Shown: one piece after another, positions 3,827-61,073 of the stretch
How positions within the stretch are numbered: position 1 is the stretch's first letter
How the letters are laid out: each line of letters opens with the position of its first letter
Origin: Cryomorphaceae bacterium
Lineage (GTDB): Bacteria > Bacteroidota > Bacteroidia > Flavobacteriales > Schleiferiaceae
DNA length: 64,000 bases
Reading direction: 5' to 3'
Assembly: GCA_020832345.1 (NCBI GenBank)
Contig: JAFIEY010000155.1
Location: forward strand, 4,581-68,580
Program-made: the position numbers and the translations under genes
Notes under the pieces: model-generated
Told to the model about the DNA's origin: nothing
Databases searched by the model: none
What the model saw: the letters and a program-made list of their open reading frames with translations, nothing else

Positions 3827-4873
3827 CTAAAACATCATACGAACGCCCATGCTATAGGTTCCCATGAAAGGAGACCGCGTGGCACGATAGGCAAAGTCGA
3901 GAGCAAAGCGGGTATTATCGTTGCCTGAGGACAAGGGTAGATCCATGGAAATACCAGAAGCGAAGCCGGTAAATGCATTAGTGTGGCGACTATCTGCGCG
4001 ATCATCAAAAAATATGTAACCGGCCCGTAGCATGAATTTTTCCTGAAAGGCAAACTCACCACCTACATGGTATTCATCCTTTTGAAAAGAATGGGAATTA
4101 AAGCTACCCATCACAGTAAAGCGCAAATCCGTATCCAAATCAAAATCATAAGAACCACCTAAATTGAGGTTTGAAGGCAATTCAAAGGGTGCGGAACGAC
4201 TTTGCCAGGATTGGGTATAACCACCACCGGGAACCGGAAGTGAAACATCAAAACCATCACCACTAAAGGCAACAGAGGGGCCAATATTACGAAGGGTAAT
4301 ACCAAACTTAATTTTATCATCTTCACCGGTAACATACTGAATCCCCGCATCTACACAAAGTGCTGTGGCGGAAAGGTTGCTCAGGCTTTGATTAAAAACC
4401 TTTAGGTTTACACCACCATATATCGCATCCGTAAATCGCTGTGCATAAGAAGCTGTTATGATTGAAGCATTGGGTGAAAAAGTACCCAAACCACCATCTG
4501 GGTTATTAACCGTACGCACATCAATATCACCATAATTGATATTGGTTAAGGACAAACCCAACACACCATTGGCACCAACACGCTGCGTTAGCCCAAAGGC
4601 ATTGACAAACATATCAGCCCCAACCAACCATTGTGTATTGGTAAATGATACCTCAGTGCCCTCGGTAAAAGCCATTCCGGCTACGTTTAGAAACATGGCT
4701 TCTACACCACGCGTACCGCCAATGTTGGCATTATTGGTACCCGCTGATTGGGCCCAAGGATTTATAAGGAGCTCAGCGGCACCGGCAGAACCCACCCTTT
4801 GTGGATTCCCCGCGTAAACAGGCACACTAGCTATGGCGAGTGCAAGTCCTAAAACCTTTAGTGGTTTAATCAT
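3827..4873 (-). CDS. PorV/PorQ-family-like outer-membrane beta-barrel protein (putative)
   Basis: 348 aa with signal peptide MIKPLKVLGLALAIASVPVYA. The N-terminal GSAGAAELLINPWAQSAGTNNANIGG...EAMFLNVAGMAF resembles the PorV/PorQ motif pattern. Alternating beta-strand composition, and a C-terminal aromatic residue (...GVRMMF). Confidence 0.55.
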   Translation of the reverse strand: MIKPLKVLGLALAIASVPVYAGNPQRVGSAGAAELLINPWAQSAGTNNANIGGTRGVEAMFLNVAGMAFTEGTEVSFTNTQWLVGADMFVNAFGLTQRVGANGVLGLSLTNINYGDIDVRTVNNPDGGLGTFSPNASIITASYAQRFTDAIYGGVNLKVFNQSLSNLSATALCVDAGIQYVTGEDDKIKFGITLRNIGPSVAFSGDGFDVSLPVPGGGYTQSWQSRSAPFELPSNLNLGGSYDFDLDTDLRFTVMGSFNSHSFQKDEYHVGGEFAFQEKFMLRAGYIFFDDRADSRHTNAFTGFASGISMDLPLSSGNDNTRFALDFAYRATRSPFMGTYSMGVRMMF

Positions 4874-56225: not shown

Positions 56226-58667
56226 ATGTTTGTAATTAAAAGAGACGGAAGAAAAGAACCGGTCAAGTTCGATAAAATCACTGCCCGCGTTGAAAAGCTG
56301 TGTTACGGACTCAGCGAAATTGTCAATCCCACCACCGTGGCCGTCAAAGTCATCGAAGGGATTTACGATGGTGTAACGACCACCGAACTCGACAGTTTGG
56401 CTGCGGAAATTAGCGCCAGCATGACAACGCGCCACCCCGACTACGCAAAACTGGCCGCCCGCATCGCCGTTTCAAACCTGCACAAAAACACCGAAAAATC
56501 TTTTTCGGAAACCATGCGCACGCTGCACACCTATATCAACCCAAAAACCAATCTGCAATCCCCACTCATTGCCGATGATGTGATGGAAATCATCGAAGCC
56601 AATGCCGAGCGATTGGATTCAACCATCATTTACGATCGTGATTTTGGGTACGACTACTTTGGGTTCAAAACCCTTGAGCGTTCGTACTTGCTGCGCATCA
56701 ATGGAAAAATTGCCGAGCGTCCGCAACACATGCTCATGCGCGTTTCTGTGGGCATCCACAAAGAAGATATCGAATCGGCCATCAAAACCTACGAGTTGAT
56801 GTCCAAAAAATTCTTCACGCACGCTACGCCAACACTTTTCAACGCCGGTACGCCCAAGCCGCAAATGTCGTCCTGTTTCCTACTCACCATGAAAGACGAC
56901 AGCATTGACGGAATTTACGATACCTTAAAGCAATGTTCAAAAATCTCTCAGTCGGCAGGTGGAATCGGATTGGCAATCCACAATGTGCGCGCTACCGGAA
57001 GTTACATTCGCGGCACCAACGGCACCAGCAACGGCATTGTTCCCATGCTTCGCGTATTTAACGACACCGCCCGTTATGTAGATCAAGGCGGCGGAAAACG
57101 CAAAGGATCCTTTGCCATTTATATGGAACCATGGCACGCCGACATCAACGATTTCCTCGACCTAAAAAAGAATCACGGAAAAGAAGAAAACCGCGCCCGC
57201 GATTTGTTTTATGCCCTGTGGATTTCCGACCTCTTTATGGAACGCGTTGAAAGCGATGGAAAATGGACACTCATGTGCCCCAACGAATGCCCCGGTCTCG
57301 ACGAAGCCTACGGTGCAAAATTCCGCGAACTTTACGAAAGATACGAGGCCGAAAACAAAGGTCGCAAAACCATCAAAGCACGCGAACTGTGGACCAAAAT
57401 CGTTGAGTCACAAATTGAAACGGGCACACCATACATGCTCTATAAAGATGCAGCCAACGAAAAATCCAACCAGAAAAACCTGGGCACCATTCGTTCGTCA
57501 AACCTTTGTACCGAAATCTTAGAATATACTTCACCCGACGAAGTGGCCGTTTGCAACCTCGCCTCTTTGGCCCTGCCCATGTTTATCGAGGACAACAAAT
57601 TCAACCACCAATTGCTGTATGAGGTCACCTATCAGGTCACCAAAAACCTCAACAAAGTCATCGACCGGAATTACTATCCCGTGCCCGAGGCGCGTAACAG
57701 CAACATGAAACACCGTCCCGTGGGATTGGGCATCCAGGGCCTCGCCGATGCCTTTATCATGTTGCGCATGCCATTCACCAGTGAAGAAGCCCGCCAGCTC
57801 AACAAGGATATTTTCGAAACCATTTACTACGCTGCCCTTTGCGCATCAAAAGACGAAGCCAAAGCCGACGGCGCATACGAAACCTTTAAAGGTTCACCCA
57901 TTTCTGAGGGTAAGTTCCAGTTTGATTTGTGGAACATCGATGCCGCCGACCTGAGTGGTCGCTGGAATTGGGAAAGCCTCCGCAGCGAAGTGGTCGAACA
58001 CGGGGTGAGAAACAGCCTTTTGTTGGCCCCCATGCCAACTGCCTCCACATCACAAATTCTCGGCAACAACGAATGTTTCGAGCCTTATACATCAAACATT
58101 TATACCCGTAGAGTACTAAGCGGAGAATTCGTCGTCGTCAACAAGCACCTATTGCTCGATCTGGTCGAACTCGGCTTGTGGGATGAAGAAATGAAGAACG
58201 AAATCATCCGCGCCAACGGAAGTGTCCAGCACATCGAAAACATCCCAGAGGAGATCAAAGTGTTGTACAAAACCGTTTGGGAAATGAGCATGAAAGACAT
58301 CATCGACATGGCGGCAGACCGCGGAATTTTCATCGATCAATCCCAAAGTCTGAACCTCTTCGTAGAGAGTCCCAATCTCGGCAAACTCACCTCCATGCAT
58401 TTCTATGCCTGGAAAAAAGGTCTGAAAACCGGAATGTACTACCTTCGCACCAAGTCCGCCACCGACGCCATTAAATTTACCGTGGGCAAAAAAGCCGTGG
58501 CAGAACCCAGCATCACCGCCGAAAGTCTTCAGCAAAGACAAGTTGACACCAAAACCCTAGGCGAGAAACGTTCGCAGGAACTTTTGGCCGCCAACGGATA
58601 TACCGCCGAAGAGGCCCTCGCGTGTTCGATTGATAATCCCGATGAGTGCGAAGCTTGCGGATCATAA
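56226..58667 (+). CDS. nrdA: Class Ia ribonucleotide reductase alpha subunit with N-terminal ATP-cone
   Basis: 813 aa. [16 protein letters not shown] (ATP-cone), [21 protein letters not shown], and the C-terminal Cys pair CEACGS. Confidence 0.95.
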
Positions 58668-58670
58668 ATT

Positions 58671-58793
58671 GTCTTTGAAGTAAAACGCCATAGACTTCGT
58701 TACTTATAGTTTTTAAATCAGTTACTTATTCATATAAGCGCCTTAGATTTATAAACTAAAAAAGCCTCGTCTATGACATTTTCTTGCAAAGAC
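58671..58793 (+). repeat. Family-2 palindromic post-stop element (copy after nrdA)
   Basis: GTCTTTGAAGTAAAAC...TATAGTTTTTAAATC-loop-AGATTTATAAACTA...ATTTTCTTGCAAAGAC. It starts 3 nt after the nrdA TAA stop and is collinear with the groEL copy. Confidence 0.8.
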
Positions 58794-58799
58794 CAAAAA

Positions 58800-58974
58800 G
58801 GAGGTTTTAATACAAAGCCTAGGGCGCCAGCCGGGCTATCCATTCCAAGTCCTCGCCCCCCAGGCACATTCAGTAAGCCGGAGAAGAGCTTCTAAGGTCG
58901 CTCTTCTCCGGCTTCTTCATGTATGCCTGTGGGGCTGTGGGCTTTCCATTTCTATCCCTGGCGCGAAAACCCCC
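58800..58974. ncRNA. Candidate rod-shaped structured RNA (unclassified)
   Basis: Nested complementary segments. GGAGGTTTT (58800-58808) pairs with AAAACCCCC (58966-58974). GCGCCAG (58824-58830) pairs with CTGGCGC (58958-58964). CCCCCAGGCACAT pairs with ATGTATGCCTGTGGGG. A perfect 13-bp apical stem, GCCGGAGAAGAGC (58877-58889) with GCTCTTCTCCGGC (58900-58912), has a 10-nt loop. Two same-sense strands of about 23-25 nt form a large internal bubble. Confidence 0.35.
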
Positions 58975-58985
58975 GCACGCATCGC
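58932..58985 (+). repeat. 54-bp direct repeat, copy 1 (3' arm of the rod structure)
   Basis: GGGCTGTGGGCTTTCCATTTCTATCCCTGGCGCGAAAACCCCCGCACGCATCGC. It is identical to 60419-60471 except for a 1-nt A-run length difference. Confidence 0.9.
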
Positions 58986-59093
58986 ATGTATTTTAGCACA
59001 GATTGCAGTTATCTGCACACCATCGGGGCTATTATTGTGAAGGGTTTTGCATCTGGTGTCAACCAAAGTTGTGATGAAGGCACTTATAAATTA

Positions 59094-59109
59094 TGAGTCC
59101 ACTCCAAAA
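59094..59109 (-). repeat. Family-1 element, 16-nt terminal fragment
   Basis: TGAGTCCACTCCAAAA is the reverse complement of the family-1 right terminus. Nothing else of the element is present. Confidence 0.5.
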
Positions 59110-59176
59110 TTGTAGGCATAATGTTATTTGTTATACGCCTCATAACGTGTCTATTACCGTATGGAAATTCTTTTAA

Positions 59177-60292
59177 TTACCTTTGGTGCGTGCTACAAAG
59201 TTCATAATTTGTGCTTCGTCCACCGCTTGCATCTTTTTGTAAAATATCCTTCTTCATTAAATCTTGAATATCTCGGAGAGCAGTATCCTGTGAGCACTTG
59301 TTGATTTTCGCCCATTTCGATGTCGTCAACTTTCCATCAAAACCATCCAGTAGTCTGTTTATTATTTTTTGCTGCCTATCATTGAGAATTGTTGTAGCAT
59401 GTAATTTCCAAAATTCTGCTTTTTGAAATACTTTAGATAAAGTTTCTTCTGAGGAATAAATCGCATTTAATAAGCATTGTAAAAACCACAAAATCCACTC
59501 TGTAATATCTGAATTTCCTTTTTGTGTTTTCTCAAGTTTTTCGTAATACTTTTTCCTATCCATTCTAATTTGAGCCGACATGCTATAAAAACGTCTAATA
59601 CTCTTATCTGAACGAGCCAACATCATGTCCGTAATTGCCCGTGTAATTCGTCCGTTCCCGTCATCGAATGGGTGAATTGTCACGAACCAAAAATGAGCAA
59701 TAGCTGCCTTAAGAACCAAATCTATTTCATGCTCGCTTTCAAACCAATCTAAGAACGCATTCATCTCTGCTTCTATCCTTTCTGAACTTGGCGCTTGATA
59801 ATGAACTTTTTCTTTTCCCATAGGGCCCGAAACAACTTGCATGGGACCAGTCGTGTCTTTTCTCCAGTCTGCAACTGTGATTTTATAGAGATTACTCCAA
59901 CCTGAAGGGAATAGTGCAGCATGCCAACCAAACAACCTGTCTTTAGTCAAAGGCACATCATATCTTTGTGTAGCGTCAAGCATCATTTCAACGATTCCAT
60001 CAACGTGGCGATCCGATTCCACAGCGCCCGCAATATCTATTCCTAGTCGCCTAGCAATTGAAGAACGTACTTGTCCTATATCCAAAAACTCACCTTCTAT
60101 TTCTGAAGATTTAATCACATCTAAAGTAAGCGTGTTCAAAACCGCTTCATTTTGCAAATCAAAACCAAGCGATTCCATTTTACCCAACAGTCTTCCTTGT
60201 TGGTTTCTTGCTTCCCCAAGTTTTATCATCACTTTTTTATTGTCCCAAGTGAAGTCTGTCCAGTTTTCGTTCTCGTGAATATAAATTTTCAT
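59177..60292 (-). CDS. fic: Fic-family AMPylase (Fic_N, Fic core and C-terminal winged-helix-like domain), class II with an intramolecular inhibitory motif
   Basis: 371 aa from ATG 60292 (MKIYIHENENWTDFTW). Core motif HPFDDGNGRITRAITD. The inhibitory-helix-type motif SSEIEG fits (S/T)xxxE(G/N) and lies upstream of the core. AT-rich compared with neighbouring genes. Confidence 0.9.
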   Translation of the reverse strand: MKIYIHENENWTDFTWDNKKVMIKLGEARNQQGRLLGKMESLGFDLQNEAVLNTLTLDVIKSSEIEGEFLDIGQVRSSIARRLGIDIAGAVESDRHVDGIVEMMLDATQRYDVPLTKDRLFGWHAALFPSGWSNLYKITVADWRKDTTGPMQVVSGPMGKEKVHYQAPSSERIEAEMNAFLDWFESEHEIDLVLKAAIAHFWFVTIHPFDDGNGRITRAITDMMLARSDKSIRRFYSMSAQIRMDRKKYYEKLEKTQKGNSDITEWILWFLQCLLNAIYSSEETLSKVFQKAEFWKLHATTILNDRQQKIINRLLDGFDGKLTTSKWAKINKCSQDTALRDIQDLMKKDILQKDASGGRSTNYELCSTHQR

Positions 60293-60337
60293 TCTCCGCA
60301 AATTATGCGACAAATATACAGCTTATTCTCCGCAAAT
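60291..60337 (-). promoter_or_regulatory. Tandem 13-bp direct repeat at the fic start
   Basis: ATTCTCCGCAAAT occurs at 60291-60303 (overlapping the ATG) and at 60325-60337, giving a 34-bp period. On the coding strand it reads ATTTGCGGAGAAT. Confidence 0.3.
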
Positions 60338-60418
60338 GAAACCTATATTGCAACTACCCGACGTCAATTTTTAGGAATCTCTCTACCTCATGGTGAGAGT
60401 TTTGACATGCGTTGTCCC

Positions 60419-60471
60419 GGGCTGTGGGCTTTCCATTTCTATCCCTGGCGCGAAACCCCCGCACGCATCGC
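60419..60471 (+). repeat. 54-bp direct repeat, copy 2
   Basis: GGGCTGTGGGCTTTCCATTTCTATCCCTGGCGCGAAACCCCCGCACGCATCGC. It lacks the 5' partner arm, so it is a half-copy of the 58800-58974 structure. Confidence 0.9.
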
Positions 60472-60594
60472 TTGGAGATTAGCAAAATACCAGCATATCC
60501 GCTTTTGTGAAATATGCCACCGCTCAACCGTTTGCGGGATAAATAGTAAATCCTTATTTTTGTTCGCCATAAAGTCATCGAACATTCCGATTCA

Positions 60595-60930
60595 ATGACT
60601 TGCCCTACGAAAAAGCTAATGAATATTGAACAAACCAATATTAAACTGAAAAAACTAGGCATTGCTGGCTATGTCCTTAAAACTGCATTATTCTTTTACG
60701 GCTATATTGTCTTTAAATTCTATTTCTGGGAATGGGGCTGGGCATCTAAATTCGATTATACATTATTTTCAATAACCGACTTTGCCGCCCTCTTGATCGT
60801 CGTGATTATTGGAATATTATTACGTAGAATTGGCAATTTAATTGAAATCACATTAAAGGAGAATATTTCCCTTGGTGAATTGCAATACACTTTATTTGAA
60901 GAAGATAAAATATCCAAGCCCATTAATTAG
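60595..60930 (+). CDS. Hypothetical small membrane protein (2 TM)
   Basis: 111 aa with two hydrophobic segments (IAGYVLKTALFFYGYIVF and FAALLIVVIIGILL). AT-rich, and I recognise no motif. Confidence 0.4.
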   Translation: MTCPTKKLMNIEQTNIKLKKLGIAGYVLKTALFFYGYIVFKFYFWEWGWASKFDYTLFSITDFAALLIVVIIGILLRRIGNLIEITLKENISLGELQYTLFEEDKISKPIN

Positions 60931-60950
60931 AGCTTGTCCATAAAGTCAAA

Positions 60951-61073
60951 GTGGCTAGGTTAGAAGGTTCGAGGACAAGGCTTGCGAAACCTGAAATTCA
61001 GTGAGTTTACTAAAGTAAATGACCTTAATTTCAGGTGAGCATAACGCCGTCATCGGACTTTATAGCCAGCCAC
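60951..61073 (+). other. Long imperfect hairpin between two small ORFs
   Basis: Helices are GTGGCT/AGCCAC (the outer ends), GGTTCGAGGAC with GTCATCGGACT (partly wobble), a perfect 10-bp ACCTGAAATT (60989-60998) with AATTTCAGGT (61027-61036), and an apical TTTAC/GTAAA. The transition mismatches become G-U pairs only on the plus strand. Confidence 0.35.

Follow-up and report, generated by a model that had tools for sequence, protein, structure and literature searches.

Genomic islands that integrate at tRNA and tmRNA genes, and their integrase-less derivatives (the CIMEs and IMEX elements), leave a characteristic arrangement, with an intact target on one side of the foreign cargo and a partial direct copy of this target on the other side. 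A locus of similar appearance was preliminarily described in a 64,000-nt stretch of DNA from a Cryomorphaceae bacterium (this whole stretch is referred to as the window), which lies on contig C176 of a 4.03-Mb genome with 41.2% GC (G000). At this locus, a fic gene located downstream of nrdA is enclosed by two direct copies of a 54-nt sequence, one of which belongs to a structured repeat that we call the rod. The locus shares the intact target, the partial direct copy, and the foreign cargo with the tRNA/tmRNA islands, but it differs from them in that its target is a multi-copy repeat, the duplicated sequence includes unique flank, the cargo is a single gene, no integrase is present, and the GC content is not anomalous. 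The locus is a combination of known kinds, namely a horizontally acquired gene of the SoFic type, the relic of an attC-type unit, and what looks like a one-off insertion scar beside a Flavo-1-like repeat.

Each of these parts has described counterparts. SoFic of Shewanella (PDB 3EQX/3ZCN) is a single-gene anti-phage defence. The Flavo-1 motif (Rfam RF01705) was predicted by computation, and its function is unknown (Weinberg et al. 2010, PMC2864571). In Flavobacterium psychrophilum, it has been located in both sense and antisense orientation as well as outside transcribed regions (PMC9723704). Integrons, in which attC sites bound the gene cassettes, have been reported in Bacteroidota (PMC8618304).

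The 54-nt sequence reads GGGCTGTGGGCTTTCCATTTCTATCCCTGGCGCGAAA(A)CCCCCGCACGCATCGC, and its two copies match at 53 of 54 positions. The sole difference is an indel in one run of A (A4 or A3); an assembly artefact is an unlikely source of the repeat because the copies differ by this mid-repeat indel. The repeat itself, the placement of copy 1 in the 3′ arm of the complete rod, and the isolation of copy 2, with neither a 5′ arm nor an apex upstream of 60419, were all confirmed as preliminarily described (Table 1). Bases 4–36 of the 54-mer are common to ~25 rod copies in G000, whereas the whole 54-mer occurs at these two sites only. The remaining members of the rod family reach at most 94% identity to it over at most 33 nt. 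Thus, the suspicion that the 54-mer might be a common dispersed repeat applies to its first ~36 nt and not to its full length. The family element stops at GGCGCG(R), and the tails that follow in other copies are unrelated, so the last 18 nt of the 54-mer are locus-specific flank. Both 54-mers therefore derive from this locus, and the repeat is more likely a local duplication of the target than an att core borne by an element. Beyond the 54-mer, a weak extension of 13 nt closes with TTAGCA in both copies; this could be microhomology at the junction or chance.

The common tail also bears on the idea that two independent rods once flanked the region, the second of which lost its 5′ arm and apex by a deletion tied to the arrival of fic or by later decay. 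The rods are dispersed and look mobile (25 copies), and two full ones lie 6.5 kb apart on contig C73. However, two independent rods would share neither the 18-nt tail nor the 53/54 identity. This reading is largely refuted by the common unique tail, and we regard it as very improbable.

The explanation that we tentatively favour, with somewhat less than even confidence, is that a fic fragment was captured illegitimately (i.e., not site-specifically) at the Flavo-1-like hairpin repeat or next to it, and that a long target duplication accompanied the capture. The captured piece would be 1.43 kb of foreign or relocated chromosomal DNA that carried an already degenerate fic unit and was placed downstream of nrdA. 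At the hairpin, a break or staggered nicks would have left one end close to the base of the apical hairpin and a second end just past the repeat. The linear fragment would then have been joined in, and fill-in, or over-copying from a sister template, would have put the segment between the two ends on both sides of the insert. On this model, the 54-nt repeat would be a target-site duplication originating from the target itself (the 3′ half of the rod and 18 nt of flank), the half rod at copy 2 would be a scar without a function of its own, and the site before the insertion would read nrdA-rod-tail-TTGGAGATTAGC with a single 54-mer. The duplication of a half repeat along with its flank, the positions of the boundaries, the cargo that was truncated beforehand, and the lack of a recombinase would all four fit a break at the hairpin followed by capture. 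The break-and-fill-in model, as well as the direction and age of the duplication event, is inferred from one assembly.

The degenerate state of the cargo becomes apparent from comparison with its relatives. More than 580 stretches matching fic, at ~90% amino-acid identity across orders, were found in species-representative genomes of GTDB, and the best 80 of these (L021–L100) were compared in detail. Their proteins are 77%–92% identical and their fic DNA is 72%–90% identical to the window, across Bacteroidales, Flavobacteriales, Cytophagales, and others. Where close pairs of fic lie in different surroundings, they have a sharply bounded, discrete unit of 1.24–1.36 kb in common. By these comparisons, the window fic is clearly foreign and horizontally acquired. 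The unit starts with G↓TTACCGCC (the arrow marks the boundary), 122 nt 5′ of the ATG, and contains four TGCGGAGA boxes around a −7-like box of the form TAnnTTTG. At its other end, an R″-like sequence, GGCGGTAAC, lies within the last codons and is followed by an imperfect hairpin of ~120 nt that closes with A(A/C)CG↓TT. This attC-like 3′ hairpin is present in at least 21 of the 80 related loci, and a complete hairpin of like kind lies directly upstream of the fic unit in four loci (L058, L024, L029, and L053). Three copies of an attC-like hairpin were found in L026, and the unit occurs both in hairpin arrays and as single copies.

As far as can be judged from sequence, the architecture of the fic unit is that of integron attC cassettes in arrays. 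The site is named attC-like, as the genomes of 14 fic hosts (G000 and 13 others) yielded no integron integrase above the cut-off of the TIGR02249 profile. The fic of other Bacteroidota thus resembles integron cassettes and the clusters of attC sites or single attC sites lacking integron integrases (CALIN and SALIN) in being a discrete unit that is bounded by G↓TT, ends in an R″-hairpin-R′ site, and occurs in arrays. It differs from them in that the hairpin and both ends are missing from the window copy, the sampled hosts yielded no integron integrase, and presumed promoter and operator boxes are supplied by the unit itself. In locus L030, a similar attC-like sequence was recognized by eye upstream of the fic unit. 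Farther upstream, a few hundred bases from the unit and beyond this hairpin, the genes for an IS91-family transposase and for a Xer-like tyrosine recombinase (300 aa) are arranged divergently (L030:569-2631). The recombinase scored under the integron-integrase cut-off and was rejected as an integron integrase, the two genes forming a Xer-like, IS91-type pair.

In the window, homology to the unit extends from 59153 to 60342 only. The window fic has a 24-nt C-terminal variant in common with L037, L048, L070, and L049. At its 5′ side, the window copy is missing ~72 nt from the start of the unit, and with them R′ and two of its four boxes, and because the homology stops at 60342, the G↓TT boundary of R′ is not present. 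At its 3′ side, the attC-like hairpin is missing. A remnant of attC was sought in the 167-nt spacer next to copy 1 of the 54-mer and was rejected, as no significant fold was found on either strand (DNA z-scores of +0.3 and −0.5). Likewise, a unit start beside copy 2 was considered, where the positions fit, but sequence similarity is absent; global alignments of the 76-nt spacer to canonical 5′ ends were no better than those of shuffled sequences (z-scores from −1.3 to +0.3), and this spacer has no homologue elsewhere. The near identity of the 54-mers implies that the spacers have not decayed in place since the duplication, and thus the fragment arrived already truncated. Since the spacers contain neither the canonical ends nor attC, the fragment did not integrate as an active cassette.

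These observations contradict a fresh integron-type cassette insertion, whether of attC into a secondary site or of attC into a hairpin, with the rod mistaken for attC. Such an insertion is suggested by the relatives, at least 21 of 80 of which end in GGCGGTAAC and the ~120-nt hairpin, start with G↓TTACCGCC, and often stand behind another hairpin, and by the CGGTAAT remnant that is kept in the window. Nevertheless, the window copy has lost attC and R′ and is separated from the 54-mers by unrelated spacers at both ends, and G000 and the 13 host genomes yielded no integrase over the cut-off. Integron recombination, moreover, leaves no target duplication. We consider this route hardly credible.

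In a congener of G000 (G003), fic has an RNase R-like gene on one side and a gene without known function on the other, i.e., it lies at another locus than in G000. The G003 fic is 89% identical to a Natronoflexus copy compared to 82.6% to the window copy; it represents another sub-lineage, and G003 acquired fic independently. It is flanked by a direct repeat of 32 nt with 78% identity (L104, 3680–3711 and 4976–5007), one copy of which begins 2 nt past the stop codon of the RNase R-like gene. An empty site for this insertion was sought in 40 genomes of the family, in which conservation was limited to the adjacent coding part of the RNase R-like gene. The repeats around fic in other genomes were mostly neighbouring attC-like sites or duplicated cassettes. 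In L088, a 65–90-nt direct repeat of AT-rich local sequence surrounds the fic unit (L088:2719-2783 and 4129-4192), and an attC-like segment apparently lies upstream of the GTTAC start, as though a circular unit had been opened at R″ and not at R′. In L084, two copies of a CRISPR-like repeat (CTTTTAATTGCACTATCGTAGAATTGAAAC) were observed ~250 nt 5′ of the fic unit, in a region flanked by a 134-nt direct repeat.

The product of the window fic is predicted to be an intact class II Fic AMP-transferase that is self-inhibited and belongs to the SoFic type. It matched the Pfam families DUF4172 (4.7e-32) and Fic (1.3e-17). The catalytic motif HxFx(D/E)GNGRxxR is present as HPFDDGNGRITR, and the inhibitory motif (S/T)xxxE(G/N) is present as SSEIEG at residues ~62–67, N-terminal to the Fic core. 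The SoFic profile of PADLOC matched over the full length of the protein (1.6e-45, residues 13–362), and the closest solved relative is PDB 8CIL (7.6e-105). The protein resembles SoFic in its motif, its N-terminal SxxxEG helix, its length, and the order of its domains. In contrast, it scored 57.5 bits against the NCBIfam SoFic equivalog, which has a cut-off of 550, and therefore belongs to a distinct Bacteroidota clade. A role in anti-phage defence may be proposed for it. The boxes that remain upstream of the window fic presumably serve as promoter and operator, and the gene probably represses itself via its TGCGGAGA boxes.

The 54-mer copies are separated by 1,433 nt with one credible open reading frame, that of fic, and the preliminary description was correct in that fic and a 16-nt fragment of the family-1 sequence (59093-59108) are the only recognizable contents and that the module contains no integrase. 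The family-1 fragment excepted, the 167-nt spacer had no homologue in its own genome or in the fetched loci. The fragment (TGAGTCCACTCCAAAA) is an exact 16-nt match, a length far above chance. The 16-mer occurs 115 times in G000 and not once in 40 other genomes of the family, two congeners included, which points to a very recent, lineage-specific burst of family-1; its presence in the insert hints at a donor of the same lineage or at relocation within the lineage. A scan for consensus promoters and terminators revealed nothing above the shuffled background. The GC content of the insert (38.3%) lies at the 21st percentile of the G000 sequence windows (mean 41.4%, sd 4.0), while that of nrdA (49.2%) lies at the 99th percentile. 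The previously noted contrast between the two is therefore real, but it is not a sign of an island, as nrdA is the outlier relative to the genome.

The family-1 fragment favours a rival explanation, in which fic was imported from a close relative or from the same lineage by homology-facilitated illegitimate recombination. The nrdA-rod-tail segment would have served as the anchor, and the far end of the incoming DNA would have been joined upstream of the anchor end, which would have duplicated 54 nt. In addition to the exact match to a sequence that is found 115 times in G000 and is absent from 40 genomes of the family, suggesting a same-lineage donor, such an import would be consistent with the possible TTAGCA microhomology near one junction and with the spacers, which look like anonymous chromosomal DNA. 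However, the donor would itself have to carry fic directly behind this rod and tail, so that the problem is simply shifted by one step, and no such donor was found in the scans of genome and metagenome contigs. Natural competence is not an established property of this group. We judge the import to be rather unlikely.

A mirror image of the fic locus is present on contig C253 of the same genome. There, a partial 5′ rod (C253:3509-3563) is followed by an AAA_14/DUF4143 gene. Next, 45–53 nt of unique flank together with the 5′ half of a rod (C253:4962-5065) precede a Schlafen/AlbA_2 gene on the minus strand, after which the same flank recurs along with a full rod (C253:6999-7199). As this flank is absent from other copies of the family, it again indicates a local duplication. 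The partial 5′ rod before the AAA_14/DUF4143 gene is an older copy. At both loci, one boundary of the repeat lies within ~20–40 nt of the centre of the hairpin and the other boundary lies outside the element. Unpaired rod arms are few in G000 and consist of copy 2 of the 54-mer and the 5′ pieces on C253, and among the ~36 rods of the congener G004 no unpaired arms were found, contig ends aside. Relatives of the C253 Schlafen gene are 85%–88% identical across orders, which corresponds to a phylum-wide horizontal spread. The idea that this gene is an attC cassette was rejected. Its relatives often follow genes with C-terminal ends resembling type I restriction-modification subunits (a likeness judged by eye) and carry TAAGGAAC boxes. 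In these relatives (L111–L129), three TAAGGAAC boxes are conserved just 3′ of the open reading frame; the C253 gene also carries HATPase_c_4.

Both loci were also compared with an att-type duplication, in which a small element that carried the 54-nt 3′ part of the rod would have integrated site-specifically, its recombinase having been lost or acting in trans (e.g., the host Xer proteins, as for IMEX elements, or as for the cis-mobilizable CIMEs). The intact target on one side with a partial copy on the other, as at the tRNA/tmRNA islands, agrees with such an event, and so do the two successive partial 5′ copies on C253, which end at nearly the same position of the rod, like a tandem accretion. 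A search of the whole genome G000 with PF00589 detected four Xer-like genes of ~295 aa (on C109, C124, C230, and C241), none of them on a contig with a rod, and serine recombinases were not searched for; these four recombinases could act in trans. Against this stands that the repeat runs into locus-unique flank, which the element would have to carry beforehand, and that the unit is only 1.43 kb, without an integrase, and consists of a degenerate fic unit with anonymous spacers. Furthermore, although rods are multi-copy, half copies occur at two loci only and at none of the ~36 rods of G004 (contig ends aside), and the junctions of the fic and C253 loci have no motif in common. An att-type origin is, in our estimate, improbable. 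From the earlier interpretation as an island, an insertion with a duplication scar around horizontally acquired cargo is retained, whereas the multi-copy target, the unique flank within the repeat, the missing integrase, and the unremarkable GC content do not support an integrated island.

Several observations weigh against the capture at the hairpin. No enzyme that would make the proposed break was identified. Neither an empty site nor a sister strain was found, and both the insertion and its polarity are read from a single genome: exact-pattern scans of genome and metagenome contig collections for the unique part of the 54-mer gave no matches, the region downstream of nrdA is unrelated in the congeners G001 and G003, and the genes that follow nrdA in G003 sit on a different contig in G000. 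The family-1 fragment suggests a long residence or an origin in this genome or a close relative, which is hard to reconcile with the near-perfect, and hence young, duplication, except if the fragment came by relocation out of such a source. The sequence that separates the 54-mer from the common TTAGCA, amounting to seven mismatches, has no explanation. The rod-internal boundaries of the two loci are not equivalent, as they lie ~37 nt after the centre of the hairpin at fic and ~20 nt before it on C253. Finally, G000 contains 117 local same-strand repeat pairs 0.3–5 kb apart, so repeat-flanked genes are not rare in this repeat-rich genome and any one of them is less surprising.

The rod is a multi-copy structured repeat and not a unique RNA gene. 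The claim that the insertion occurred at the 3′ end of a structured RNA gene, as with tRNA and tmRNA, is thus not upheld, since the rod belongs to a dispersed family of ~25 copies without an Rfam match at threshold. The window rod (~150 nt) folds with a z-score of −4.8. The family members in G000 have two conserved blocks ~110 nt apart and a variable apex, and they are found on contigs that include C28, C31, C37, C61, C73, C78, C83, C84, C93, C130, C153, C167, C195, C206, and C253. Rods were counted in G000 (25) and in five congeners (~36 in G004, and 2, 1, 1, and 0 in the others). Many rods sit immediately 3′ of a gene in the same orientation, dnaK among them, and the family splits into two subfamilies. 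A consensus structure derived from 14 diverse rods has compensatory changes in 11 of 22 pairs, and its helices enclose two similar internal-loop words.

The window rod had no match in Rfam, even at E ≤ 10. The single rods of three congeners (L107, L108, and L110), in contrast, align end to end with Flavo-1 at 29.2, 22.0, and 21.9 bits, which is below the gathering threshold of 42 bits, and they have an apical insertion of ~92 nt in place of ~23 nt. Their internal-loop words align to the Flavo-1 consensus. The congener rods therefore match the model throughout, with its flanking helices and both internal-loop words of the AGCGGAAAGC type, and the rod is multi-copy and strand-ambiguous, as is Flavo-1 in F. 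psychrophilum (PMC9723704); the scores under the threshold, the apical insertion, and the absence of a match for the window copy set the rods apart from Flavo-1.

The rods also resemble the rearrangement hot spots formed by repetitive extragenic palindromes and bacterial interspersed mosaic elements (REP/BIME) and by miniature inverted-repeat transposable elements (MITEs), in that they are short intergenic hairpin repeats by stop codons, vary in copy number among congeners, and adjoin accessory genes. Unlike these, they have no linked RAYT (REP-associated tyrosine transposase) or Y1 transposase. No such transposase linked to rods was found, the sole Y1 transposase in G000 being a pseudogene, and a RAYT/Y1 transposase was rejected as the driver of the rods, as its presence across the genus does not follow the rod copy number. 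Hundreds of MITE-like repeats were noted in G000, along with the four Xer-like tyrosine recombinases and the one Y1 transposase pseudogene.

The features of the locus are listed in Table 1. The palindromic repeat that directly follows nrdA has copies with 78%–85% identity elsewhere in G000 and in congeners. Further to the right, a short repeat at 60920-61000 has many copies in all congeners (79%–94% identity) and overlaps a 123-nt hairpin.

Table 1. Features of the nrdA-fic region, in window coordinates
Feature	Position	Strand	Remarks
nrdA, class I ribonucleotide reductase large subunit	56226-58667	+	Pfam ATP-cone, Ribonuc_red_lgN, Ribonuc_red_lgC; E 3.7e-219
Separate dispersed palindromic repeat (~130 nt)	58665-58800		Right after the nrdA stop codon; outside the duplication
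Full rod, structured GC-rich Flavo-1-like repeat	58820-58967		Perfect 15-bp apical hairpin at 58875-58914
Direct repeat, copy 1	58932-58985	+	3′ arm of the rod (to 58967) and 18 nt of unique flank
Spacer, 167 nt, unstructured	58986-59152		Includes the family-1 terminal stub, 59093-59108
CGGTAAT, remnant of the R″-like box (canonical GGCGGTAAC)	59153-59159	-	From 3′-end alignment with L037, L048, L070, and L049
fic, intact 371-aa class II Fic, SoFic-type	59177-60292	-	DUF4172, Fic, and C-terminal domain
Kept part of the 5′ region of the unit	60291-60342	-	Two ATTTGCGGAGAAT boxes (60291-60303, 60325-60337) around the TATATTTG −7-like box (60311-60318)
Spacer, 76 nt	60343-60418		Unrelated to the canonical 5′ end of the unit; R′ GTTACCGCC and two boxes missing
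Direct repeat, copy 2	60419-60471	+	Isolated half rod and the same 18-nt flank; upstream 5′ arm and apex lacking
Possible degenerate extension of the repeat	60472-60484	+	TTGGAGATTAGCA compared with ATGTATTTTAGCA at 58986-58998

What appeared to be an island at an RNA gene would thus be a scar left by illegitimate gene capture in a genome rich in repeats; the GC argument was an artefact of the comparison with nrdA. Integrons are considered rare in Bacteroidota; the probably self-regulated SoFic-type fic unit, with its attC-like site and its presence at ~90% identity in hundreds of Bacteroidota species, would be a good model for the travel of defence genes. The expanded Flavo-1 variant resembles a mobile repeat in its behaviour, with a copy number that ranges from 0 to ~36 across the congeners. 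The two half-repeat duplications around mobile genes in one genome hint that breakage at hairpin repeats may be a route of gene gain. A broader generalization, which we regard as quite doubtful, is that Flavo-1-like hairpin repeats are preferred landing pads for single mobile genes of the defence type (Fic, Schlafen/AlbA_2 ATPase, and AAA_14/DUF4143), which would arrive without a dedicated integrase by hairpin-directed break-and-copy. If this were true, the orphan Flavo-1 motif would gain a role in genome plasticity.

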